DNA from: a virus
Virus genome (UHGV): UHGV-0125936
DNA: 35,354 nt
Reading direction: 5' to 3' (one strand)
How positions within the stretch are numbered: the stretch's first letter is position 1; each line of letters starts with the position of its first letter. The notes beneath the pieces were generated by a model. That model saw only the letters and a list, made by a program, of their open reading frames with translations, was not told the origin of the DNA and made no database searches. Positions 3,505 to 25,747 of the stretch are shown one piece after another. The translations under genes were made by a program, and so were the position numbers.

Positions 3505-4092
3505 TTATTGCTGATCTTCTGCATAAATCCCGGCTGAGATAATCGCACCGCCTATTTCCCTCTGTCCGTAAAGCAAAGGAACGGGGTTACCGGATGCCGT
3601 AGTATTGACGGGTCCGCCAAACGCATAGGAAGGCTTATTATCTGGGTCCTGTCGCATCCTCAGACCAGCAACCTGAGGGGAAAGCATTTGCACTACACCA
3701 CCCACAGCCATAGAACCAGCTGCGGCATATAGCGCCATTTGTGTACCTGCTGCCCATCCTATTGGGTTCCACCAGGTAAAAGCCGCAATTGCGGCGGCAG
3801 TAACAATTTGAAAGAGGCCAGCCCTTTTACTGCCGCGTATTACAGGGATAATGCGAAGTTCATCGCCAGGTCCAAGAAGATCAAACTCTTCCTTTCCTAT
3901 GTTTATTTGGTTTCGGAAGATGACAAAGTCCAGCCCCTTCGCTCTGGTCTCACGCAGGTAGGCATCAAATCCATCAATTGTGTTAGATAGCGCCCTGAAT
4001 ACCTCACTGGCAGACGTTAACGCGCGGCGGTGGGTCCTGCCAAATCGCTGAGCCATTGAACCACTGAGTTTAATGACGGTTTTTCTTTCCAT
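3505..4092 (-). CDS. I: Tail assembly protein I-like
   Basis: 195 aa; position between K and J; hydrophobic Gly/Ala-rich C-terminal half typical of gpI. Confidence 0.7.
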   Translation of the reverse strand: MERKTVIKLSGSMAQRFGRTHRRALTSASEVFRALSNTIDGFDAYLRETRAKGLDFVIFRNQINIGKEEFDLLGPGDELRIIPVIRGSKRAGLFQIVTAAAIAAFTWWNPIGWAAGTQMALYAAAGSMAVGGVVQMLSPQVAGLRMRQDPDNKPSYAFGGPVNTTASGNPVPLLYGQREIGGAIISAGIYAEDQQ

Positions 4093-4802
4093 TACATCAA
4101 ATCCTTATAGCGCAGAATTTTGATGGTACGGTCACGATAATAGCCACCGTATGGAATGCGCTGACTTAGCTGGCCATACATGTGGTGAAGGAGCACATTA
4201 CCCTCAAGCAAAATACCCGCGTGGTTTGGGACTGCGGACTGTACCTGCATGATCACCATGTCACCTGGCTGGGAAGGCCCGTCGAACTCCCTGAATCCAC
4301 ACTCATACCAGTTGTCCATGTAGAGGTTTTCGCCCTGCTCCCACCAGTGACGATCCACGCTGTAATTCGGTAACGTAATACCGTGCTCAGTACGGAAGTA
4401 ATCCATGATGAGAGACCAGCAGTCGGCGTGACCGAGCACAAACTGGCGACCAGTTAACGGGCGATCACCACGAGGCATGACGGTACGAATATCCCCTTCA
4501 GGCCAGGATGCAATTACCCAGGGCAATTCAGTGGCATCGCACATCAGCATGTCGAGTTCACTGGGCTGGGTTGTCGCGCCGTCACCAGGATGGCTGTGCA
4601 CGATAGCAACTACTGTGCCCTGCTCTTCAGCCGCTGCATAATCTTCAGGAGACAATTCAAACTGCTCAGTCGGGGATTCAGCCTGATTTCTGCAAGGGAT
4701 GTATTTCTCTACTCGCCCCTTCTGTATGACAACGCCACAGCATTCGTCTGGACACGATGCGGCCGCGTGCGCCAGTATGGCGCTGACTGTTTTGTCGCGC
4801 AT
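4092..4802 (-). CDS. K: Tail assembly protein K-like (JAMM/MPN + NlpC/P60 domains)
   Basis: VVAIVHSHPG...SELD JAMM-like motif; C-terminal NlpC/P60-like region with Cys/His; start overlaps L stop. Confidence 0.8.
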   Translation of the reverse strand: MRDKTVSAILAHAAASCPDECCGVVIQKGRVEKYIPCRNQAESPTEQFELSPEDYAAAEEQGTVVAIVHSHPGDGATTQPSELDMLMCDATELPWVIASWPEGDIRTVMPRGDRPLTGRQFVLGHADCWSLIMDYFRTEHGITLPNYSVDRHWWEQGENLYMDNWYECGFREFDGPSQPGDMVIMQVQSAVPNHAGILLEGNVLLHHMYGQLSQRIPYGGYYRDRTIKILRYKDLM

Positions 4803-4804
4803 GA

Positions 4805-5563
4805 TTATCCTCTCAGAAGTGAAGCGCCGGGGAACCCGCCATAATCCAGCTGTTCATTCTCTCCGAAGCGAGGTTTACAGCCCGTTGACAGCAATCCGGA
4901 GCAAACATCCTGTGAAGGATCGTCCACCCGATTGCCGTCTTTATCGAACCAGCCGTTTTGCCCGGCGTAGGTGCAGCCGTTCCCCGTTTTGTACCAGCCC
5001 CGCATGCACCACGTGCACATTGGCTGAATTTGCCGGGTCGGAATGAGTTGCCCGCGCAAATCGGCTGGACTGGAAAGCTCAAACTCTACGGTTTCATCGT
5101 CTGATCCTGATTTACGGTCGATGTAATAAACCTGTTTGCGCTCCTCGTTGGGATTTGCAGTCGGATTCCCGTCAGGAAAATTTCTTGCGTCCAGATAGTG
5201 GGCGAAAGTGTCATGGATGATCACCTTTGCTTTAGCCATCCCCTGAAATCTTCGGCACAGTGCGCCAATCGTGCCGCTGATGTTTGCCACGGTGAGAGAC
5301 GGCCGTGAACTCTGCCCGTCACTGCTGACAGATATGCCGGTCAGTTCATACGGCCACGCGCCATACTCCTGCCCCTGCCACCACACCGACTTCGGCTCAA
5401 GTTTTGACTCGTCGCCGCCTGCGGCGATGATTTCCGCCTCGGTATGCGGGATTGTCTCGTTGTGAAAGCGAAGAATACCGGCACCGAAAGCTGAGCCGTC
5501 CACCTCGATCAGGCGGACGCGCTTACCCGGCTCCAGTTTCTGGACATCAGATGAAATGCTCAT
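4805..5563 (-). CDS. L: Tail tip protein L-like
   Basis: C-terminal Cys cluster (CTWCMRGW...CTYAG...CSGLLSTGC); start chosen at MSISSDV (ATG 5563), overlapping M stop as ATGA; ORF track start 5647 has no better support. Confidence 0.75.
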   Translation of the reverse strand: MSISSDVQKLEPGKRVRLIEVDGSAFGAGILRFHNETIPHTEAEIIAAGGDESKLEPKSVWWQGQEYGAWPYELTGISVSSDGQSSRPSLTVANISGTIGALCRRFQGMAKAKVIIHDTFAHYLDARNFPDGNPTANPNEERKQVYYIDRKSGSDDETVEFELSSPADLRGQLIPTRQIQPMCTWCMRGWYKTGNGCTYAGQNGWFDKDGNRVDDPSQDVCSGLLSTGCKPRFGENEQLDYGGFPGASLLRG

Positions 5564-5898
5564 GGATGGTATGCCTGTATGAATGTGCTGCTGAGGGTGT
5601 ATTTTTTGTTGCCGTGGGTAGATATCTGGAAGGATTCCGCGCGCCATAAACCTGAAGGCTCAAGCGGCGGCTTCCAGATAAATGACTTCCACCCGGCATT
5701 TCTGTTCAGAAAGTTTTTAATGGCCTGAATGTAAGCCTCGTCGCCGGTAAAGCTCACGCTCCACTGAGGTGTTACCGGGTTGATGCCGTCCCCGGCCACC
5801 TGTGTATAGCCATCGCCAAACTGCGCCTTTCGGGTACGAAAACTTGTATCAACCTGAGAGGCAACCTTTGGGCACCAGCTGAAGGTTTCGACTGCCAT
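5560..5898 (-). CDS. M: Tail tip protein M-like
   Basis: RFGDGY and GWKSF motifs as in lambda gpM; RBS AAGGGAG 7 nt upstream of ATG 5898. Confidence 0.75.
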   Translation of the reverse strand: MAVETFSWCPKVASQVDTSFRTRKAQFGDGYTQVAGDGINPVTPQWSVSFTGDEAYIQAIKNFLNRNAGWKSFIWKPPLEPSGLWRAESFQISTHGNKKYTLSSTFIQAYHP

Positions 5899-5900
5899 GG

Positions 5901-8900
5901 TTAAACTCCCTTGATTAATCGCCACAGAGGCGAGCCCGGCATGCTGGCCTGTTCGTTAATGACGCCAGTGATGGCATCTTTCAGTTGTCTGCCAGCGGCG
6001 CCGGCGGTTCCCTGACTTGCTGCCTGTGGTGATCCACCCTGAATATTGATATCGCCGAAGTTAACTGAAGGCACACCGCCGGAGACCTGCGGAGTACCAA
6101 CTGCCCGAACGCCCAGCGAACCATCAGCGGCGCGCGTAAGCGGCATAATGGCTTCCGGACCAGCCTCGGCAAAAACGCCTGCGCCTTTGGCAAAAGCAAA
6201 CAGCTGAGGCGTCTGAAAAACGCCATTGCTGTAAGCGCTCAGGGACGGAGAGTCGTAAACATTACCCTTCGCATTAAAGGTAAAGTTCGCGCCGGCATTC
6301 TGAATAGCGGTACCGCTGCTGGCGGTTGCGGCTGACGAGGCGCCAAAACTGAACAGTGATCCAATTGAGCTGACGCCATTAGCAACAGCCATATTCACCA
6401 GGACGTTCTGGATAATCTTCAGTACGCTGACGCCCCAGTCCTTCCAGCTGTCAACGTTGCCATTGAGCATGTCGGTGATCGTGGTGACCGCGCCACCCAT
6501 GGCCTGCTTCATGCCGTCAGCGGCCATGGAAGAATAATCAGTAGCTTCGTCCACCCAGTTCGCATAACCCTCAGACAGTCCCGTCATCCAGTCGTCACGC
6601 TGCGCATCAGAAGCTGCGTAATATCCCTCCTGGTCGAGCAGGCGCTCTTCGAGGTAGCGCTTATTAAGTGCCAGCCCCTGCTGATAGAACGTCTCGTCGA
6701 TTTCACCAGCCTGACGCTGGCGGAGAAGATCGGTATTCTTCTGCTCAAACTCCTTACGCAGATTGAACTGCTCCTGAAGTCTTTCACGGAACCTGGTTCC
6801 CTGCCCGTATCCCAGCAGTTGCGCTTCATTGGCTGCGCGGGCGCTGGCGTTACTGTCGGCAAGGTTGGCTTCGTAATTTCGCAGTTGCTCACGTAATTTA
6901 ACCTGGTCAATCAGCGTAGCATTCTGCAATACCGTCTTTTTCTGGGCTTCTGTCAGAGAAGCAAGTTCGCCCTGGCTGACCTGGTATTTAACCTTCGCCA
7001 GTTCAGTATTCTGGCCTTGCAGGGCAATCTGCTCTTTTTGCTGTTTGATCAGCTTGTCATAGGCATCAGCTGTTTTTTCCGCCTCGGATTTCCCGCCCTT
7101 ATGGCGGCTTGAGTCACGAATAGCTTGCAACTGCCTGGCTGACTCAACTTCCATGCTGACATACTTCTCACGCCAACCAGCAGGGAGATTAAGGTCAGAT
7201 GCATCGAATTCCGCCTGCTTGCGGGTTTTGTCCAATCCCTTAAGACCGGACAACTCAAGCTGTCGCTGCGCCTTGTCTATAGCTTGCTGCTGCTTATTAT
7301 CAAGTGCAGGAAGTACAGGCCCTGCATATTTTGGTGGGGACACTGCTGTAGACTGTCTGGAAACCTTGTTCAGACGGTCATACATCTCTGTAAGAGAACT
7401 TACGGCGCCAGCCATTTCTACTGTTTTATTTATAGCCTGATCAGTTATGTCGTTTATTAACTGTTGTGTTTGCTTTCTTTTATTGAGCATTTGCTCAAGT
7501 CGGCCTTCTTCAACCGCAAGTTCTGAAGCAAACTCTGCTGCTTTCTCAACCGCATCGTTATACAGCCATGTTCCCTCTGAAGCAGAATTGGCTGCTAATT
7601 TTGCGTTATAAAGTTGATTGGATAATTCAGCAACTTTCTGCTTCTGCTGTTCAATCGCACTATTTTGAGCATCCAGTGAAATATTCGCCTGTCCAAGGTT
7701 GGCGGATATCTGCGTCTGAGACATTGATTTCAGATTATCTCGTACCTGCTCGATTGTGTCCGCATATTGGATTGCAGATTCCCTGGCTTGTTCTTGGCGT
7801 TGATACATCATGTACCACGCCCCAGCACCCAACATTAAAATTCCTGGCAAACCACCAACTAACGACAAAAGCCCCGTAGCGCCAGACTTGAATAAATTCA
7901 TTACCGATGTTGATCGGTTGAGTGCTTCTTGCGACGCTGATACTGCTTTATTTGACTGAACGAGAGTGGCATTGGCGGCTATCATTTCGCGCCGTTTGGC
8001 AATAGAATTTTGTGTAGCTGTCGCTTCTGCATTTGTGTTTTTTGCAAGTTCCAACTCGGATAGCGAGAGCTGATAAGCACGCTCGGCAGCAATCGCATCT
8101 GCTGCCGCCTTTCGTTGTGATTGGGTAGCAGATTCAGCCCTTGCAGATGCGAGCGCAATTTCGTTCTTTCTGGCATCTATTAATTGCGCCGTTTGGTTCC
8201 CAAGATCGCCAAACATCCCTCCAAGATAGCGAGCTCCACCTATTGCAGCCAAAGCTCCGGCAGCCGTAGCCACAGTGTCGATATTGTCAGAAACTGTATT
8301 CAATACAGCAACAAGAGCACTTGTCGCACCAGTAGCTTCATTAGCTCCACCTACCCATGCCATGAAAGCATTTTCGACTTTCGTCGTGGCAGCAGAAACG
8401 GTCTGCGGCATTGCCTCAAATTCACCACGCATAGTGCCAAGTTGACTTATCAGGGCCGGGACAACTTTATCTGCGGTTAGCATCCCCTGATCGGCCATTG
8501 CCTTCAGATCTTTACGAGCTACACCCATCCCAGCGGCCAGCGCACGGATAACTCGATCACCGTTTTCGTTAACAGAGTTGAATTCCTCGCCCCGCAGAAC
8601 GCCCTGAGCTAATGCCTGACTAAACTGGGTGATAACAGAACTTGCCTCTGCCGTGCTGGCGCCGGATAGCTTTAGTCCAGTAGAAATGGCCTCGGTTACA
8701 TCCAGAACTTGCTGCGAACTGTATCCGTATTCACGCATTGATGCGGCGGAACGCGCAAAAAGACTCGCATTATCAGAGAAGGCGGTTCCGGTTCGTTGGC
8801 TAATATCCATCAGCGCCCGCTGAGACTCCGTGAAATCATCAGACGATTGGGAAGCCTGCTTTAGCCTGGCATTAACAGAGCTCCATTCATCGGCCAGCGA

Positions 8901-10123: not shown

Positions 10124-10567
10124 TCAGGAGCCAGACTCGATGTTTTCAGGCTTACCTTTCAGGCGCAGGGAGAACGTTGCCGCCACTACGCCGTTGGTAC
10201 CTGAAGACCAGGTGTGCTGGCGGATTTCAGCCAGGAACTTAAAGCCCTTGCCGGACGGGAAGATAACCTGGAAAGCGTAGGTCGTATCGTTGTCATAGGC
10301 CTCACGCAAGGCGTCCTGCGCCGGATTCTTGTAGAAGTTGCCGGACAGAGAGATTTCTGACGGAGAAGGCAGGCCGTTGATGTTCTCCTGCTCGGTAGAG
10401 CAAAGTGTTGTTACGTCGATATCCTGCTTCTGACCACCGGTGAACTGAATTTCTTTGATGGTGCAACTCAGATCGAGGAAGGTTGCGGAATCCATCGTTT
10501 CTTTGGTGGCTGGCAGGGAGGAAATAAGGATCTTCGTCAGCTGCGATTTTTCATAAAGTGCAGACAT
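10124..10567 (-). CDS. Major tail protein
   Basis: 147 aa; RBS AGGAGA; position immediately upstream of G/T chaperone. Confidence 0.65.
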   Translation of the reverse strand: MSALYEKSQLTKILISSLPATKETMDSATFLDLSCTIKEIQFTGGQKQDIDVTTLCSTEQENINGLPSPSEISLSGNFYKNPAQDALREAYDNDTTYAFQVIFPSGKGFKFLAEIRQHTWSSGTNGVVAATFSLRLKGKPENIESGS

Positions 10568-11420: not shown

Positions 11421-11755
11421 TTTTCAGCTCCCGTTTTGCAAAGGATTTCCAGACGAGTGCCGGTCGAATTTGCTACCGGAGGACCGATGATATTTAGCAC
11501 CTGGCCTTTATACGGCCCGCTTAGCACTTCCAGACGAGAAGAGGCGTTCAGGTCAGCCCTGAAGCGCATCCAGACGCGAATAGTTGCCTGCGCCGTCTCC
11601 GCGCCGCCTGACAGCTGCTCTCTGCCGCTGATCCCCTTCACCTCGGCAGAAATCGAGCTGCCACCTTTCCACGATTCAACCGGCTGGCCAGATGGATCAC
11701 GCGAGGTTGTGAAGGTGAGAATTTTTACCCGGTGCCTGAATCGTCCCGGTTCCAT
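11417..11755 (-). CDS. Head closure / head-tail adaptor protein
   Basis: 112 aa; synteny; overlapping stop/start with neighbours. Confidence 0.5.
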   Translation of the reverse strand: MEPGRFRHRVKILTFTTSRDPSGQPVESWKGGSSISAEVKGISGREQLSGGAETAQATIRVWMRFRADLNASSRLEVLSGPYKGQVLNIIGPPVANSTGTRLEILCKTGAEK

Positions 11756-12081
11756 CAGGAGCCCTCCTCTGATTCGGCTTTACCGCGCCAGTTGCGATGA
11801 ATGAACATCATGCGTTCGGCGGCTGCATTCTCATAAAGCTGCACTTCGCTTTGTGCCGTCCGGTGTTCAAACATGTCTGCAAAGACAAGCAGAACGGCGC
11901 CCTTAACGGCGGCAGGAATATCAGCCGCAACCTTCCATGCTGGTTCATCGCACCAGCGTATGCAGTAGTCAAAAGCGGCCTGGGCGTACAGCGTGATCAG
12001 CTCGTCCCTGTCGTCTTCCTCAAACTCAATCTGCTGCTTAAACAGACTGAGGGAAATTACATCCAGAACATCTATCGCCAT
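11755..12081 (-). CDS. Head-tail connector protein (gp6-like)
   Basis: 108 aa acidic protein immediately downstream of major capsid gene. Confidence 0.5.
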   Translation of the reverse strand: MAIDVLDVISLSLFKQQIEFEEDDRDELITLYAQAAFDYCIRWCDEPAWKVAADIPAAVKGAVLLVFADMFEHRTAQSEVQLYENAAAERMMFIHRNWRGKAESEEGS

Positions 12082-12114: not shown

Positions 12115-13272
12115 TCATGAGCCAGAAGAGAAGCTGCCCTTGATGATTGCCGTCGGGCGATAGTGCGCCAGCGCCAGGCGTTCTTCGCACAGGATGGTCA
12201 GCATGTTTTTCACGAAGTTATCGCGGTCTTCACGGCTGACTTCCACGGTGGCATCCATGCGATCCCACACCTGTGAGGCCATATCAAAACCGCCTACGGT
12301 AAAGGTACCGGCGGCCTGCGCCTTAGTCGGAACCACTGGCAGGCCCCACATGATGTTGCTGGTAAACGCCTGAGGACCACCGAAGAGGTAACGACCTTCG
12401 TTGTCTTTCAGCAGCGCGATGTTGTGCCAGTCGCGCGGGTTCAGGACGATACCGGAAGCGCTAAACTCAGACTCGGTCACCTGGTAAATAGCATGAGCGA
12501 TGATGTCAGCGCGGGTGTCACCGGAAACGTTCAGCGAGGTGTCGTAGGCGGTAGCCACTTTGTTCAGCCCCTCCAGGTTATCCCCGGTGCCGTCGCCATT
12601 CAGCAGCTGGTTTTCCTCCTTCAGTGCCAGACCATACATCAGACGGCCGTTGACGTATGACTGCAACATTGGTGCATCGTCCATAACCTGACGTGACGCC
12701 TGTACCCAGTGCGCGATGGTTTTCACGTTCGCGGTCTGCTTGCTGAAGGTGATATCCGATTCTGGCTTAAGCGCTTTCTCAGCCACCACATCGGCGTTAT
12801 TGGTAAACACCTCTTCACGCACATATTCCAGAGCGTTGCTGGAAATGCGGCCCTGAGCCAGCAGGTCACGGATGGTCAGACGGCGCAGGCCAGGCATGAT
12901 GATGCCAGGCATCTGCATAGGTTGGATCAGTGATCCAGCAGAATCAGCGTCACTGCCGAGAGACTTGTTAAACGTCTTCGCGTCGAAGGTGCCCTGTTTA
13001 CCGTCCCATGACTTAATAAGCTCTTCAGCAGCCCGTTCAGAGAAGGATTTCTTCTCACCAGGATTCTCAGCGCCGGATGCCAGTTTCTGCTCCAGATCGA
13101 AGAGACGAGTGCCGGATTTGGTCAGCTCTTCCTGTACTTTCATCAGATCGGACTGCAACTGTTTGGAAACCTGGCCCGTGCTTTCGATTTCTGCTTTCTG
13201 CGCATCGAAAAGCTGGGTCATTTTCTGCTGGGATTCTTCGATAGCTTTTTGAATGAGAGCGAGTTCAGACAT
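12115..13272 (-). CDS. Major capsid protein, HK97 fold
   Basis: 385 aa; N-terminal coiled-coil delta-like region then capsid domain; follows prohead protease. Confidence 0.85.
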   Translation of the reverse strand: MSELALIQKAIEESQQKMTQLFDAQKAEIESTGQVSKQLQSDLMKVQEELTKSGTRLFDLEQKLASGAENPGEKKSFSERAAEELIKSWDGKQGTFDAKTFNKSLGSDADSAGSLIQPMQMPGIIMPGLRRLTIRDLLAQGRISSNALEYVREEVFTNNADVVAEKALKPESDITFSKQTANVKTIAHWVQASRQVMDDAPMLQSYVNGRLMYGLALKEENQLLNGDGTGDNLEGLNKVATAYDTSLNVSGDTRADIIAHAIYQVTESEFSASGIVLNPRDWHNIALLKDNEGRYLFGGPQAFTSNIMWGLPVVPTKAQAAGTFTVGGFDMASQVWDRMDATVEVSREDRDNFVKNMLTILCEERLALAHYRPTAIIKGSFSSGS

Positions 13273-17433: not shown

Positions 17434-17637
17434 CTATGCCGAATGTTTGTCTACCTGTTCGAGTTTCTGATCGCCTTTCCGATGCCCGGAGACAACATGA
17501 CCTGAAATGGTCACCGTCGGCATCTCCTGCCCTACAGCGTGCGAGAACTGAATGGATGTCACGTCCTTCATCTCCACGCCATCAATCACCAGGCGAACGA
17601 ATTTTCCATTGCGGTATTCAATGCTGAGGTCTTTCAT
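17434..17637 (-). CDS. Hypothetical small protein translationally coupled to HNH gene
   Basis: 67-aa ORF whose start overlaps the HNH stop. Confidence 0.3.
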   Translation of the reverse strand: MKDLSIEYRNGKFVRLVIDGVEMKDVTSIQFSHAVGQEMPTVTISGHVVSGHRKGDQKLEQVDKHSA

Positions 17638-17990
17638 TACGTGCTCCAGTGAGACGCAGGATCGAGCGGGTAGCCATTGGCATCACAGCCTATTACCGCG
17701 CCGCTCTTCTCCATCCTCTGTTTCGTTGAGTCATGATGCGCTTTACACAGTGGCTGCCAGTTCTCTTTACTCCAGAACAGGAGCTGTGCTTTCGATATGG
17801 CCAGCGGGTTACCTGACTTAAGCGCATCTTTGAGTTTGTGGGGCTCGATATGGTCAACCACCGTTGCTGGGGTAATCCGCCCCTGCTGCTCGCACATCAC
17901 ACATAGTGGGTGCTGCTGCAGGAAACGCAGACGGGCCTTATCCCATCGGCTGCCATATACGCGGGGCTCTTTGTTCATGACAGTCTCCAT
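17637..17990 (-). CDS. HNH endonuclease (terminase-associated)
   Basis: CVMCEQQGR...VDHIEPH...CKAHHDSTKQ HNH zinc-finger motif; located just upstream of cos/TerS as in HK97 gp74. Confidence 0.85.
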   Translation of the reverse strand: METVMNKEPRVYGSRWDKARLRFLQQHPLCVMCEQQGRITPATVVDHIEPHKLKDALKSGNPLAISKAQLLFWSKENWQPLCKAHHDSTKQRMEKSGAVIGCDANGYPLDPASHWST

Positions 17991-18034: not shown

Positions 18035-18615
18035 TTATGCCAGCCTCCATGCGCGGCGGCGTTCTGTCCTCGGCTCGTTGTCAGGGTGACGCTCAACCGT
18101 CTGGAGGTCAGCGTGATCCACCAGCGAGTAACACGGATAAATCACCCGACCACCGAATGCCTCACCGACAGCGTAATCAGCTGCCAGCGTTTTGTTCCAT
18201 GTACTGAGCATGCGCGCCAAACTTCCCCGAGGAGGGCTATAACATACGCCGTGAATCAGTTTGCTTAATACGATGTGGTCACCACAGACGCGATCCGCAT
18301 CCACCAGCATTCCGGCAATCTCTTTCTGATACTGCGGCGGTCGGCCGGTACCGAGATAAAAGCTCAGCATGTCGTCAGGGAAGCGCACCAGCCATTCAGT
18401 TACCTTATCGGTGAAGCCCTGCACAGGAAGCGCGTCTTCTTCCAACACCACTACCCGGCAAGGTTGCTCAGCAGCCCATTCGATAGCGCGACGATGATTC
18501 CAGTTCGCGCCGCGGTTACCGTCATCAATAAGCAGATGAGCATCCAGCAGCGCGGCAAGTCGTTGCGCATGACCTATGCGAGAGTGATGGCCAACCACAA
18601 CAAACTTAATCTCTG
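18035..18615 (-). CDS. Putative nucleotide-sugar transferase-like (GT-A-like) protein
   Basis: 193 aa from ATGATG at 18615 (RBS GAGG upstream); KFVVVGHHSRIGHAQRLAALLDAHLLIDDG...VVVLEEDALP resembles GT-A/GT25-type N-terminus by eye only. Confidence 0.35.
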
Positions 18616-19115
18616 TCTGCATCATTATGGGTAAACACCTCATTACGGGCTCGTCGTGCAACCTCAGCAGCTTCATGCTTACAGTCAAAGTAACCAAGGT
18701 GATGCCGGGTACCATGCTCTTTATAATGAGCACACCATTTCTTCATATCCCGATTCCAAGTAACTCCACGAAATCCTGACGCAGAGGAGTGACGTTGCCT
18801 GTTTTCAGCGTTTTGTTTTGGTGTTGCTATTCGAAGATGTTTTGGGTTGACGCAAAGAGTGTTATGGCAGGTATGGTCAATCAAATATCCGTCTGGGATA
18901 GGTCCGTTGCTAAGTTCCCATGAAGCTCTGTGTGCAAGAATCATTTTTCCAGGCCCGCCAGCAGTAACTCCAGCTTTCAAATGCCCGTAAAATAAATACC
19001 TCCCACCGCCTATAGGACTCTTTCTCTTAGCCGCATTCCAGATCCAGCATTCATCTGGAGAAGCAACAACGACCTTTTCCCAGAATCTTTCACTGAAAGT
19101 TCTGGTCTTTTTCAT
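18606..19115 (-). CDS. HNH homing endonuclease with AP2 DNA-binding domain
   Basis: LIDHTCHNTLCVNPKHL HNH_3-like motif; C-terminal SGFRGVTWNRDMKKWCAHY...GYFDCKHEAA AP2-like. Confidence 0.75.
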   Translation of the reverse strand: MKKTRTFSERFWEKVVVASPDECWIWNAAKRKSPIGGGRYLFYGHLKAGVTAGGPGKMILAHRASWELSNGPIPDGYLIDHTCHNTLCVNPKHLRIATPKQNAENRQRHSSASGFRGVTWNRDMKKWCAHYKEHGTRHHLGYFDCKHEAAEVARRARNEVFTHNDADRD

Positions 19116-19121
19116 ATCAGC

Positions 19122-20579
19122 CTATTTGTGTTTAAACCAGGCGCATTCTTTGCCAATACCATCAGTCTTAAAAACTGTGTGGATACGCGGGCCGGTGACA
19201 ATGCGATCGCCAAGCGATTTAGCAACAATGCCAAAAGCGATCATATCCCCCACCGCGGCGCCAGCCTGTTCTTTCTTCCAGAATCGATAACTTTCGATCC
19301 GGTAGTAAAGACGGATGATGCCGTGAGCGAACGCCATTACATCAGCGCGGGTGCCACCCAGCAGGCCAGCGTTAAGCATCACATCGCCGCGGTGCGCTTC
19401 AATGAATTCCTGATAGATACGCTCAGGATGATTCTGTTTCGCCCAGGTGTCGGCGTATGTCTTCGGTTCAGAACCGACGTAAACATTCCCGGGCTGCATT
19501 TCTTCCCACGGTGCGCGGAGCATTTCGACATCGGTACCATCAGTACACCAGACGAACCGGTATTCAGGGTGATCTCGCAGGTGCTGCCAGATATGCAGCC
19601 AGCGCCGGAAGTAGACATTCATCTTCACCTCAGGAACGCGGTACAACTCAACATCTGCCGGTGGCGTCTGCAGTTCATCCACCAGCGCGATACGTCCACA
19701 CTGCCGGAGTGATGCGGCCCATTTAGCCAGCATCTCAGGCGAGGCCGCCATTTTCGTACCGCGCTGCGGGTCAGGCTGGCTGGTGAGCAACGTTGTGATT
19801 ACCACGTCGCGCTGCTTCCGGTATTCAACGTAACCGGTAAAGCCGGTATCACGTCGTTCGTTGTGGATCTTCACGTTACGTTCCACCAGCGCCTGGCGGT
19901 CGGGCCTCGGCACTGAACGCTCTACGGCCTCATGCTCATCGAGAGAATGGATCAGCTTTTCTGAACCGACGACATCAGCGTACGCCCACGTAGTCAGTCC
20001 TGCGTTATGGATGCGCAAGGCGAGGTCGCTGTGCTCGTACATGCCGCGACCATAAACCGGATCGAATCCGCCTACCTTCTCGATGGCGCTGCGGTGGTAA
20101 TAAAGCATCACGCCGCGCTGCCCGGTGTACGCCACATGCTGATCGTCACGGTAAAGCACCGAAAGGTCATTCAGCTTGTTCGTGCCAGCAAGATCGAGAA
20201 ACTGGTAAGCCAGGTGCGGCTCTGGTGATTCGATGTAAGGGAGGTGCCAGTTATCAGCGATAGGCCAGGCGTCATCATCCCATAAAAACAGATGCTCACA
20301 CCCGGCATCCATCAGGGCTGTCAGGCTGGCGTTCTTCGACGCAACAATGCCGAGTGATGTTTCATGGCGAAGCAGCTGCACGCCGTGTGGAACTACCGCT
20401 GCAGGTTTTGAACCATCATCGACTACCACCACCAGCGCACCGGCGGGAAGATGCTTCATGTGCTGTTCGAGTGCTCGCTTTAAAACGTCTGCGCGCTGAT
20501 GCGTCGAAATGGCAATGCCGATCCGTGATGAAACGACGCTGGCGGGAGCGTATGGGACACCATCAATAGTGACCTGCAT
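19122..20579 (-). CDS. Two-domain glycosyltransferase (N-terminal family-2-like GT-A domain; C-terminal second transferase-like domain)
   Basis: VVVVDDGS and LWDDDAW (DXD) motifs in N-terminal half; C-terminal half has CTDGTDV and NAGLLGG; RBS GGGAGG. Confidence 0.6.
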   Translation of the reverse strand: MQVTIDGVPYAPASVVSSRIGIAISTHQRADVLKRALEQHMKHLPAGALVVVVDDGSKPAAVVPHGVQLLRHETSLGIVASKNASLTALMDAGCEHLFLWDDDAWPIADNWHLPYIESPEPHLAYQFLDLAGTNKLNDLSVLYRDDQHVAYTGQRGVMLYYHRSAIEKVGGFDPVYGRGMYEHSDLALRIHNAGLTTWAYADVVGSEKLIHSLDEHEAVERSVPRPDRQALVERNVKIHNERRDTGFTGYVEYRKQRDVVITTLLTSQPDPQRGTKMAASPEMLAKWAASLRQCGRIALVDELQTPPADVELYRVPEVKMNVYFRRWLHIWQHLRDHPEYRFVWCTDGTDVEMLRAPWEEMQPGNVYVGSEPKTYADTWAKQNHPERIYQEFIEAHRGDVMLNAGLLGGTRADVMAFAHGIIRLYYRIESYRFWKKEQAGAAVGDMIAFGIVAKSLGDRIVTGPRIHTVFKTDGIGKECAWFKHK

Positions 20580-20590
20580 AAAACCTCCCG

Positions 20591-21469
20591 TCAGATTCCT
20601 CGCGACCGTGTATTCCAGAGGATGCCGCCTGGCTTGAGCGCATTGCGAAGAGCATCGTTCACCGCTTCGTGCATCGCCTGTTGCAAGCCAACTACTGAAG
20701 CTGTTTGCGCATCAATCTTTGCCTGGAGGGCTGCGAACAAATCGCTTTCGCGTACGGCGGAGATAATGGCTTCGCACATCTCATCATTGAGGCTGGTTTT
20801 GGTGGCATTATTACCATCAGCGGGATTAGCCTTATCATGACTAATTGCTCCAGGGAAGCCACCAAAAGACAAACCAACATTGAATGTCGTCTTTTCATTA
20901 TTGCTGGCTGATTGAGCGGCTTCATGCACCTTATAGCGATCAGCCATAAACTCAACGTTGCTCTGGCCATCTTCAACTCCGATGGTCATGCCAGCTGCGT
21001 ACCGTTTGCCACCATAATCCACGTTCATCTTCACGCTGTAGTTCGTAGACAATGTGCCATTGCCGATCAGCGCCTCGTGGATGTAAGCCTTGCCGGTTTT
21101 ATCAACAAACCAGCCACCTTTAAGGCCATGAAGTGCGCAGCTGTTACGGATCTCTTCGTCCAGCGCCTCAATAATCTCTTCGGTATCGACAGAAGAAACC
21201 CCTTCGATCCAGTCACCGGCTCGCCAATCTCGTGCTGAGCCATCTTCTGCAATTGGACGCAGGCGCACCTGCAATCTCTCACCAGCTTTGAGGCCGGAAA
21301 TAAGGCATACGGTAGCTGGCCAGAAGATGCGTTTTTTCATAAGTCGGCCATCTTCATGAAGGCATTGCAGTTCTAGCACCGCGCAGCCACCCGGCCATTT
21401 CCATTCGACGTCCACACCAAAAGGTTTGGGAGTGGTTTTTACGTAAGGGACGATTGAAGGTTCTGACAT
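20591..21469 (-). CDS. FN3-like + J-fibre-motif protein (paralog of a distal segment of the tail-tip J protein)
   Basis: 293 aa from MSEPSIV (RBS AAGGAAAA); KRYAAGMTIGVEDGQSNVEFMADRYKV and IHEALIGNGTLS match J in this window (QYYAAGMGIGVEN...FLADRFAV; IRDALIGDGTIS); N-terminal beta-rich FN3-like region. Confidence 0.5.
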   Translation of the reverse strand: MSEPSIVPYVKTTPKPFGVDVEWKWPGGCAVLELQCLHEDGRLMKKRIFWPATVCLISGLKAGERLQVRLRPIAEDGSARDWRAGDWIEGVSSVDTEEIIEALDEEIRNSCALHGLKGGWFVDKTGKAYIHEALIGNGTLSTNYSVKMNVDYGGKRYAAGMTIGVEDGQSNVEFMADRYKVHEAAQSASNNEKTTFNVGLSFGGFPGAISHDKANPADGNNATKTSLNDEMCEAIISAVRESDLFAALQAKIDAQTASVVGLQQAMHEAVNDALRNALKPGGILWNTRSRGI

Positions 21470-21729
21470 TTTAATTTTCCTTTTAGACGTGAGCCTGTCG
21501 CACGGCAAAGCCGCCGAAAGTAATCGGTTTGCCCAGGCTCACAGCTGAAAGACTTTCTTTGATGTGCGCGTGCGATGCGCATAAATGCCGCGCTATGCGG
21601 TTACTGTCTGAATATCAGGGTATTACTTCGTTCTAACCCCGGGTAAGGTAAGCATTCAGCCCGTCAGTGGTGGGACACTGATTCACGCAAAGAGGAGGAA
21701 TGGCTGAATAACTCTTCGAAGGAAAAAGG

Positions 21730-22194
21730 ATGATCACCAAAGTAAAAATCAAGTTTATTTCCCCTATTGATGGATCGGTATCAGATACCCCCACGGAGCA
21801 TGCAATTCCCGTAGTTCCATTGACAGTATGGCCAAGTAGCTCAAAAGATATAAACGTTTATAAACCAAATGGATTGAAGGCTGGTGCCTACGCACTTATA
21901 GATACCGGAGCAGATATTTGCTATGTGGATTCAGACTTTGCTGACGATTTAAAACTCCCAATCGCGGAAAAAACAACTGTGAGCGGAGCCACCTCAACAA
22001 TAGAAACTACAGTTCGGCATGCGGTAATATCGTTCACTGAGGACGAAAGAGTTTTTTCAACAGAATTGACTTCAGTGCCATTGGTAAGTAACGGGAGAAA
22101 ATTCCAGGTCGTTTTCGGAATGCAACTAATTAAAATGGGCGCCCTTACGATGGATTTTTCCAATCAAGTATTTGAGTTAACATTTTTTAACTAA
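21730..22194 (+). CDS. Retropepsin-like (clan AA) aspartic protease, moron on opposite strand
   Basis: ALIDTGAD active-site motif and downstream VVFGMQLIKMGALTMDF flap-like motif; RBS AAGGA; AT-rich relative to flanks. Confidence 0.65.
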   Translation: MITKVKIKFISPIDGSVSDTPTEHAIPVVPLTVWPSSSKDINVYKPNGLKAGAYALIDTGADICYVDSDFADDLKLPIAEKTTVSGATSTIETTVRHAVISFTEDERVFSTELTSVPLVSNGRKFQVVFGMQLIKMGALTMDFSNQVFELTFFN

Positions 22195-22432: not shown

Positions 22433-22690
22433 CTAACAGTCGTCATCTGGACGTGCTACAGCTCGACATGCGGCCATGCATGCGCGCTTCATATCGAGCT
22501 CTGCCTGGCGTATCCACTCAACAGCTTCCCAGTCGTGAGGAGTGCGTTGTACATCACCTACATGCTCACGCAGCAACTTAATAAACTGGCGGCTGAGATC
22601 CTTAAACTGGTTCATCTTGCCGATTTCACCGTAAGAGAGTTCGCGGTAGCCCTTAACGGTGCTTCCGTCCTGTGGTTTAGCTTCGCTCAT
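22433..22690 (-). CDS. Hypothetical protein downstream of spanins
   Basis: 85 aa from MSEAKPQ; no recognisable motif. Confidence 0.35.
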   Translation of the reverse strand: MSEAKPQDGSTVKGYRELSYGEIGKMNQFKDLSRQFIKLLREHVGDVQRTPHDWEAVEWIRQAELDMKRACMAACRAVARPDDDC

Positions 22691-22756
22691 CGGATTCTCT
22701 ATTTTTGGTGGGTATGGAAACTTACCCGCGATTGAATGTGAACACAGCAGCATGCT

Positions 22757-24964: not shown

Positions 24965-25747
24965 TTAATAAGTTGTCGCCTTCTCAAACTCTACTGCCGC
25001 GTGACGCTCCCCCTGGCGCAGCGTGTCCACCAGCATTTCATAAAAGGGTTTCCAGTTGCGTGACCATGAGGACTGATGGAGGTCCGGGAGACGCTTCAGA
25101 ATGGCACGGTGTACCGTCGCCGAGGAGATTGCAGAGAAGCCATTACCAGAGCAACGTTCACACGTTTTGAAAACCGGTGCGCCGCGGTCTTTAGTCGCTT
25201 TGCGGTCCAACACTTCTCCTTTACCGCCACACCTGCACCGGGCAAGGATCACTTTCTTTCCTCCGCATGTTTCGCAAACTCTTTTCACCAGCTCATTTTT
25301 AATCTTTGGGGCCACTACTTCGGCACCGTCGGCGTCGAAAATACCAGGATGTTTAACCACATCCTCATTCCCGGAGATAAACCCGGTACCGCTGCAACTG
25401 TGGCATGTCACGCTGGTAGCCGCCGAACGGGAGTAATCAGCAAAGGCAAATTGCGCCAACATCTGCATGCACCATCCAAAATGCCCACCAGCTGCTTTGC
25501 GAACATTCTTTGGTGCCGTTTCCATCGCGTAACGAGCCAGCGCCTGAACTGCGAGCTGTTCATCTGTTTTGCTGATGCCGGCCTTGCCAAAGAAAGCAGC
25601 CAGGCCGAAGCGCGCACGGCTGCTGGTGGTGCCAATCGCCGCCATTACATCTGTTCCTGTAAGGCGGTCCGGAGAAGTTCCCTTCACGTCATCGCTGATG
25701 TGCATTCCCTGAGGACTAAAATGTTTGAGTGACGCTTCCAGTTTCAT
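24965..25747 (-). CDS. Q: Late antiterminator Q (phage 82/933W-like Q family)
   Basis: LTGTDVMAAIG, LAQFAFADYSRSAAT, multiple CxxCxGxG zinc-finger motifs, SWSRNWKPFYEMLV, matching recalled Q-family pattern; position between replication and lysis. Confidence 0.7.
   Translation of the reverse strand: MKLEASLKHFSPQGMHISDDVKGTSPDRLTGTDVMAAIGTTSSRARFGLAAFFGKAGISKTDEQLAVQALARYAMETAPKNVRKAAGGHFGWCMQMLAQFAFADYSRSAATSVTCHSCSGTGFISGNEDVVKHPGIFDADGAEVVAPKIKNELVKRVCETCGGKKVILARCRCGGKGEVLDRKATKDRGAPVFKTCERCSGNGFSAISSATVHRAILKRLPDLHQSSWSRNWKPFYEMLVDTLRQGERHAAVEFEKATTY

Follow-up and report, generated by a model that had tools for sequence, protein, structure and literature searches.

The 196-aa protein encoded at the end of a transferase cassette in an enterobacterial phage genome probably glycosylates virion proteins, and the modification would be an O-glycosylation at their C-terminal serines. 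The gene is part of the window, which here denotes the whole 35,354-nucleotide stretch of the UHGV virus genome UHGV-0125936 that was analysed; it represents an enterobacterial phage or prophage, temperate and lambdoid, that belongs to the HK97 group (Hendrixvirinae). Judging from its predicted structure, the protein is very probably a GT-A transferase, and it is minimal, soluble and distantly GT25-like, yet outside the curated GT25 model. As a bare annotation, 'glucosyltransferase' is already known for it from RefSeq and PHROGs, where the sugar is named without evidence. What appears to be new is a specific and testable predicted function, namely virion O-glycosylation at C-terminal serines in an HK97-like enterobacterial phage, together with a 485-aa partner enzyme.

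The gene is located on the minus strand and runs from an ATG at 18625 to a stop at 18035, with a second ATG at 18622 as an alternative start. A GAGGTG Shine-Dalgarno sequence was found 10 nt 5' of the start, and the first 20 nt of the gene are shared with the 3' end of the upstream HNH-AP2 ORF. The sequence-only reading had described a 193-aa ORF at 18035-18615. The ORF itself is real, but these limits had to be corrected to 18035-18625 and 196 aa because 581 nt is not a multiple of three and runs into stops on translation. Both peptides quoted in that reading were recovered from the ORF, where KFVVVGHHSRIGHAQRLAALLDAHLLIDDG spans residues 7-36 and VVVLEEDALP spans 58-67. The database clustered at 90% identity contained 1,768 homologues (E<=1e-3), and 472 clusters were found at the 50% level, numbers well beyond what chance would give. 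Nearly all homologues were 195-196 aa long. The isolated phages carrying the gene include HK542, ECP1, ENT39118 and mEp390.

The closest isolated phages to the window were Fostie, LMessi, mEp390, HK542, ENT39118 and ECP1. Along the minus strand, the Q antiterminator gene (24965-25747) is followed by the lysis genes, a variable region, the gene of the 485-aa partner glycosyltransferase (19122-20579; PHROG 1579, GT2-like in its N-terminal half), the gene of the HNH-AP2 homing endonuclease (18606-19115; Pfam HNH_3 1.9e-14, AP2 1.4e-8), the 196-aa transferase gene, and the gene of an HK97 gp74-like HNH endonuclease (17637-17990), which separates the transferase genes from the terminase genes. Beyond this endonuclease, the same strand carries TerS, TerL, the portal, the protease, the capsid, the connectors, the major tail protein, the tape measure and the tip proteins, and at the opposite end of the window are the genes for the integrase, the repressor and replication. 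The 196-aa gene is located in the late operon beside the packaging genes. A search of the cassette strand beyond the Q antiterminator gene, in the downstream direction, gave no sigma-70-like promoter, and the lack of a promoter of its own on this strand is consistent with late co-transcription of the transferases.

Other ORFs around the cassette were also noted. A 106-aa ORF at 22433-22753 (minus strand), just downstream of the lysis genes, matched the Pfam Acb2/Tad1 hairpin domain (E 2.1e-10), which makes its product a candidate sponge for the cyclic nucleotides that carry defence signals (anti-CBASS or anti-Thoeris). The 154-aa ORF at 21730-22194 is on the plus strand, against the late operon, and matched retropepsin-like aspartyl protease families (PF13650, E 6.9e-6), as a reverse-oriented moron. 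Directly upstream of the 485-aa transferase gene, a 305-aa ORF at 20591-21508 (minus strand) carries a J-like tail-tip fibre domain (PF09327, E 2e-10; PHROG 13555). This ORF is far from the tail genes, is present in a minority of the related loci, and has no terminal Ser.

The 196-aa protein matched no entry of Pfam (even at E<=1) or NCBIfam, which explains why the sequence-only reading, having recognised a small GT-A-like nucleotide-sugar transferase, could name no family. The protein was found to be a member of phrog_854 (E 2e-70, residues 5-195), for which PHROGs gives the annotation 'glucosyltransferase'. Its predicted structure is a single Rossmann-like alpha/beta/alpha domain of GT-A topology, and an acidic DXD-type motif, L61-E-E-D-A65, follows a strand predicted at residues 57-62. 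The assignment to GT-A-like transferases was borne out by the PHROG 854 membership, the predicted fold and the motifs. In the Foldseek search against viral models, proposed as a check in that reading, Mycobacterium phage Ardmore gp87 (TM 0.90) was matched first, and a long series of proteins from giant viruses and phages, annotated as GT25, followed.

Conservation was determined from an alignment of 75 diverse relatives with 29-53% identity. R16, D64, Y90, G92, D150, H171 and R190 were invariant in the family, D/E63 was conserved in at least 90%, and the consensus motifs were VLEDDAxPV, SLYLGTxRP and PSLVDHxD. When PDB sequences were searched with a profile, GxxGC..SH-like, EDD and LPxDE motifs aligned with R655 and COLGALT1, both of them GT25 proteins, and the E-values were marginal (0.047 and 0.42). 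The L-E-E-D-A motif was aligned with the EDD of both proteins, and D150, at the same marginal E-values, with the Asp of LPVDEF in COLGALT1. The single-sequence search of PDB sequences returned chance matches to proteasome subunits only. Pfam GT25 was weakly matched by 25 of the 75 relatives (best value 8.6e-8) and a few relatives carry a precomputed PF01755 match; the curated Pfam threshold for Glyco_transf_25 was not reached by the 196-aa protein. Both the predicted structure and the motifs of the protein resemble those of solved GT25 enzymes. In view of the intact catalytic motifs and the full-length conservation of the family, a decayed remnant was rejected as unlikely. Moreover, the maximum 19-residue Kyte-Doolittle hydropathy reached 0.92 in the 196-aa protein and 1.32 in its 485-aa partner, and these low values indicate that neither transferase has a membrane segment.

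The virion-glycosylation transferases of Che8 and Corndog were reportedly treated by Freeman et al. 2023 (Cell Host Microbe). This work, one experimental study of phage virion glycosylation, is said to have found little evidence for such glycosylation outside actinobacteriophages. Using BLASTP, the 196-aa protein was aligned over its full length with Che8 gp110 (32% identity, E 9e-22) and Corndog gp38 (31% identity, E 1e-15). A tblastn search of 50,697 phage genomes located the gene in 13 different enterobacterial phages, and further matches came from jumbo phages of Klebsiella (one group), Gordonia phages (21 records) and Mycobacterium phages (662 records). The mycobacteriophage matches include Corndog gp38 and Che9d gp111, the last transferase gene of the cluster F right-end cassette. 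Che8 gp110 and Corndog gp38 are named in a passage of a citing paper as essential transferases for mycobacteriophage capsid glycosylation, and a passage of PMC12619734 places the glycans at the C-termini of capsid and tail tube subunits. As the window enzyme is related to an enzyme that glycosylates mycobacteriophage capsids and tails, this virus probably also glycosylates its own particle.

The position of the transferase genes in other phages was compared with that in the window. In Che8, the order is gp108, gp109 and gp110 (the transferases), gp111, gp112 (HNH), the genome end with cos, and the terminase. The transferase pair was found directly after the capsid gene in L224 and inside the head-tail module in L140, L142 and L225. 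In the case of the Cronobacter phage ENT47670 (L223), the pair lies directly after the major tail (tube) gene, and a complete gtrABC module is present beside the integrase (gtrABC module and transferase pair at 4622-7334 and 40111-42143). The transferase cassette adjoins virion structural or packaging genes in the window, Che8, Corndog and the other lineages, and at least six different phage architectures have the transferase gene bordering structural modules or lying within them.

Since the glycans of Che8 and Corndog are C-terminal, the C-termini of virion proteins were compared across the transferase-bearing phages. In the window, a GS ending was found in just three of the 198 ORFs of at least 50 aa, all on the minus strand. 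These are the HK97 gp5-type major capsid protein (12115-13272, 385 aa, ending ...KGSFSSGS), the major tail (tube) protein (10124-10567, 147 aa, ending ...PENIESGS), and the HK97 gp6-type head-tail adaptor Ad1 (11755-12081, 108 aa, ending ...AESEEGS). The capsid and tail tube proteins are the predicted acceptors, and the adaptor is a possible third one. For background, 0.9% of the 2,255 ORFs of at least 100 aa in transferase-negative loci ended in GS and 9% in Ser. The motif was noticed post hoc by inspecting the sequences, and related loci are not independent samples.

The comparison was extended to lineages whose capsid and tail tube families differ. The capsid and tail tube end in ..NKTGS and ..YSDGS in Che8, ..PLVGS and ..IKGDS in Corndog, PGS and LGS in L139 (with AGS on the product of the gene after the capsid gene), SGS and SGS in L140, AGS and SGS in L142, AGS and TGS in L224 (with SGS on the adaptor and AGS on the chaperone), and ATS (GEATS) and PSS (SEPSS) in ENT47670. 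In L141 and L143, the capsid ends in AGS and the portal in DGS, the tail tube being outside the locus. In L225, the capsid ends in SGS, and the tail tube, ending in AEV, is an exception. The major capsid protein has a terminal Ser, usually as Gly-Ser, in every transferase-bearing lineage examined, and the tail tube ends in Ser in all but one of them. At the level of sequence, a candidate C-terminal acceptor is present on both capsid and tail tube, and such an ending is mostly absent from close relatives that have no transferase. The Gly-Ser motif at the C-terminus may already have been described by Freeman et al.

Two further endings were observed. The portal of the Mycolicibacterium prophages L141 (13443-14786) and L143 (13419-14774), both of which have a Che8-like cassette, ends in ..ADGS, and the tail assembly chaperone of L224 ends in ..LAGS. 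The portal and the chaperone are possible additional acceptors.

A control set of 52 prophages was fetched by capsid homology. The capsid ended in Ser (SGS, QTS or QNS) in 7/7 transferase-positive prophages compared with 5/43 transferase-negative ones (Fisher p ~8e-6, with related loci that are not independent). When duplicates were collapsed, as three of the five Ser-ending negatives were one genome, p was 2e-6. The adaptor ended in GS or TS in all seven transferase-positive prophages, and transferase-negative capsids with 83-84% identity ended in SSK, AGG or PTK. Similarly, 80 close-relative loci were fetched by capsid homology, 61 of which were transferase-positive. Both the capsid and the adaptor ended in GS in 61/61 of these, and so did the tail tube in 53 of the 54 in which a tail tube gene was detectable. 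The GS-ending tail tubes were of at least four diverged types, ending in NIESGS, KIDPGS, IYASGS and RIVAGS. Part of the correlation among close relatives could be due to co-inheritance of gene modules.

HK97, HK544, HK75 and L211 lack the transferase and have a 234-aa gp12-type tail tube ending in TLTIS; the capsid of L211 ends in FSAD. One transferase-positive relative, seen as both L007 and L200, is an exception with a gp12-type tail tube ending in TLTVN. HK97 (L138) has no transferases and carries a KilA-N gene in the transferase slot (4028-5545), yet its capsid gp5 ends in ..SSGS and its adaptor gp6 in ..EEGS. These GS endings can be explained if the signature outlives the enzyme or if the cassette was lost recently. 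As a separate observation on tail tube length, the transferase-bearing HK97-like phages (L145-L222) have short tail tubes of 147 or 156 aa ending in Gly-Ser, and the 234-aa gp12-type tail tube is found in the transferase-lacking L138 (HK97), L173, L183 and L211. The gp12-type protein is one that we take to have an Ig-like C-terminal domain. This domain may have been lost in transferase-bearing phages, and a glycan coat and an Ig-like decoration may be alternative surface strategies.

The sequence-only reading had suggested that the small enzyme may partner with the 485-aa one and had proposed a co-occurrence analysis. The two genes did co-occur in the related loci. With the 196-aa protein as query, 80 IMG/VR loci were fetched, and in 78 of them (78 of the 79 informative loci) the 196-aa gene had a homologue of the 485-aa gene upstream. 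The exceptions were one truncated locus and HK633, which has the 196-aa gene alone. Both transferase genes were also present in 7/7 transferase-positive prophages of a separate genome set. In the decayed prophage L088, the 485-aa gene is kept, and the 196-aa gene is only a fragment. The lone 196-aa gene of HK633 (L144, 3525-4091) is beside a truncated KilA-N gene, in a phage with a gp12-type tail tube. HK633 is a natural single-enzyme variant, useful for telling which enzyme initiates.

The N-terminal half of the 485-aa protein matched PF00535 at an E-value of 8.5e-4, which is below the Pfam threshold, and the protein matched PHROG 1579 at 2.9e-252. No Pfam or PDB match was obtained for the C-terminal half (approximately residues 260-485). 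A second transferase-like domain had been suspected there by eye, and this impression was dropped as unsupported by any such match. The AlphaFold2 model of the 485-aa protein reached a pLDDT of 49 with a shallow alignment of 81-92% identity, and no significant similarity to Che8 gp108 or gp109 was detected. Regarding the HNH-AP2 gene between the two transferase genes, a near-identical copy (97%) was found only in L076 among the 80 related loci. L063 has a copy with 53% identity, approximately 14 loci have copies with 26-39%, and the rest showed no match; the gene is also present in mEp390. Because of this patchy distribution, the HNH-AP2 gene is regarded as a mobile element that seems to have inserted recently and that plays no part in the working of the system.

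A mechanism is proposed on this basis. The 196-aa transferase would be made late in infection alongside the virion proteins, and its sugar would most likely be drawn from the host nucleotide-sugar pool. The L-E-E-D-A motif and His171 are predicted to hold a divalent metal and the diphosphate, with Asp150 as the putative base. The hydroxyl of the C-terminal serine would receive the sugar, on the capsid protein and the tail tube and probably on the head-tail adaptor too. The 485-aa transferase may then extend the glycan, giving a sugar-coated virion as in Che8 and Corndog. We infer the enzymatic activity, the donor sugar, the residue roles and the biological benefit of the 196-aa protein, as well as its taking the first, protein-directed transfer rather than the 485-aa enzyme. 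No biochemical or mass-spectrometry data on enterobacterial phages with the 196-aa gene were found in the searchable literature. As a tentative extension, somewhat short of an even chance in our estimate, the 196-aa enzyme could be the tag-reading initiating enzyme of a portable protein O-glycosylation system. The tag read would be a small residue, Ser and the free carboxylate, displayed on the unrelated capsid, tail tube and adaptor and even on the portal or chaperone, and variable partner enzymes would build lineage-specific glycans on the initiating sugar.

Other targets of the cassette have to be weighed against virion proteins. The cassette occupies a variable 'moron' slot between the lysis and packaging genes, the slot in which HK97 has KilA-N, and an integrase and a repressor mark the phage as temperate. 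These features would suit lysogenic conversion, in which both transferases act on a glycan of the host envelope (O-antigen, LPS core or capsule), thereby changing the lysogen surface and blocking superinfection. Many temperate-phage transferases act in this manner, and bacterial GT25 and GT2 relatives mostly build LPS or exopolysaccharide. However, Gtr-type O-antigen modules consist of a membrane GtrA flippase, the bactoprenol transferase GtrB and the serotype-specific transferase GtrC, whereas the cassette includes no GtrA-, GtrB- or GtrC-like flippase or membrane transferase, neither enzyme has a membrane segment, and no promoter-like site of its own is present on the cassette strand. ENT47670 has a separate gtrABC module by the integrase and the same pair after its tail tube gene, and other lineages have the pair inside the head or head-tail module. 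Moreover, the nearest characterised homologues glycosylate virions, as described in the passages of the citing papers, and lysogenic conversion does not predict the link between the transferase and C-terminal Ser on capsid and tail proteins. Lysogenic conversion is considered unlikely.

A different infection-time target, for instance a protein of the host, a small molecule or a signal of a defence system, modified for host takeover or counter-defence, is also rather unlikely, slightly more so than conversion of the lysogen surface. It gains from the very diverse acceptors of small GT-A enzymes, from the Acb2/Tad1-like candidate counter-defence gene nearby at 22433-22753, and from the fact that the function is deduced from homology at ~32% identity. 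It does not fit the location of the gene beside or inside structural modules in at least six architectures, nor the C-terminal Ser on exactly the proteins that are glycosylated in Che8 and Corndog according to the cited passages. Finally, the public family annotation 'glucosyltransferase' brings to mind glycosylation of modified bases in phage DNA to evade restriction, as in T-even phages, and phage transferases are classically tied to DNA glucosylation in a passage of PMC12619734. In the window, which is part of a prophage, the replication set is an ordinary lambdoid one, and no hydroxymethylase or base-hypermodification gene was found. The T4 alpha- and beta-glucosyltransferases have a GT-B fold, whereas the model of the 196-aa protein is GT-A, and T-even DNA glucosyltransferases are accompanied by genes that make hydroxymethylated bases. 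DNA modification is considered highly improbable, and glycosylation of virion proteins is the preferred explanation.

If such a portable system exists, virion glycosylation is no peculiarity of actinobacteriophages. Common temperate phages of enterobacteria, HK542, mEp390, ECP1 and ENT39118 among them, would use it as well, as would numerous prophages of Enterobacter, Citrobacter and Cronobacter. In a familiar group of temperate phages that infect E. coli and Enterobacter, a clear homologue of an essential mycobacteriophage enzyme is present, and the capsid and tail proteins bear the same C-terminal serine signature. HK542, mEp390 and ECP1 can be grown on E. coli K-12, so that a check of the prediction would be quick. 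Confirmation would provide a genetically tractable Gram-negative model for virion glycosylation and would allow the modified virion proteins to be predicted by a simple rule from sequence. A C-terminal tag of very few residues might also be gained for O-glycosylation of cytoplasmic proteins in E. coli, and glycan shielding of particles from antibodies is of relevance to phage therapy.

Compared with known enzymes, the 196-aa protein is small. The domain of CAZy GT25 or Pfam PF01755 (human COLGALT1, Mimivirus R655 and bacterial LPS beta-1,4-galactosyltransferases) is roughly 240-310 aa long, and the identity to it is ~12%. STIV A197 of a Sulfolobus virus (PDB 2c0n) is likewise a minimal viral GT-A transferase of 197 aa; it belongs to an archaeal virus and shows 10% identity, and common descent beyond the fold is unsupported. 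GnT-I (GT13) and POMGnT1, with 14-15% identity to the 196-aa protein, are much larger eukaryotic Golgi enzymes that act on glycan acceptors.

The Che8 and Corndog systems differ from the window in host, which is a Gram-negative enterobacterium for this HK97-like lambdoid phage and mycobacteria for the other two. The partner enzymes are unrelated, being one 485-aa two-domain protein here and the gp108 transferase and the GT2 protein gp109 in Che8. The C-terminal half of Che8 gp108 appeared methyltransferase-like by eye in an alignment, whereas no methyltransferase is present here. Virion glycosylation in the phage group of the window is a prediction from sequence, and the particles of Che8 and Corndog are glycosylated according to passages of citing papers. 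The transferases, HNH and terminase occur in the same order in the window and in Che8, where the order extends across the cos site. In all three phages, the transferase is encoded by the last gene of a multi-transferase cassette beside HNH and packaging or head genes. Che8 gp110 and Corndog gp38 are 206-211 aa in length compared with 196 aa here, and the VLEDDA, YLG and LVDH motifs are common to all. Both the capsid and the tail tube terminate in Gly-Ser in the window, and in Che8 and Corndog the ending is either Gly-Ser or Asp-Ser.
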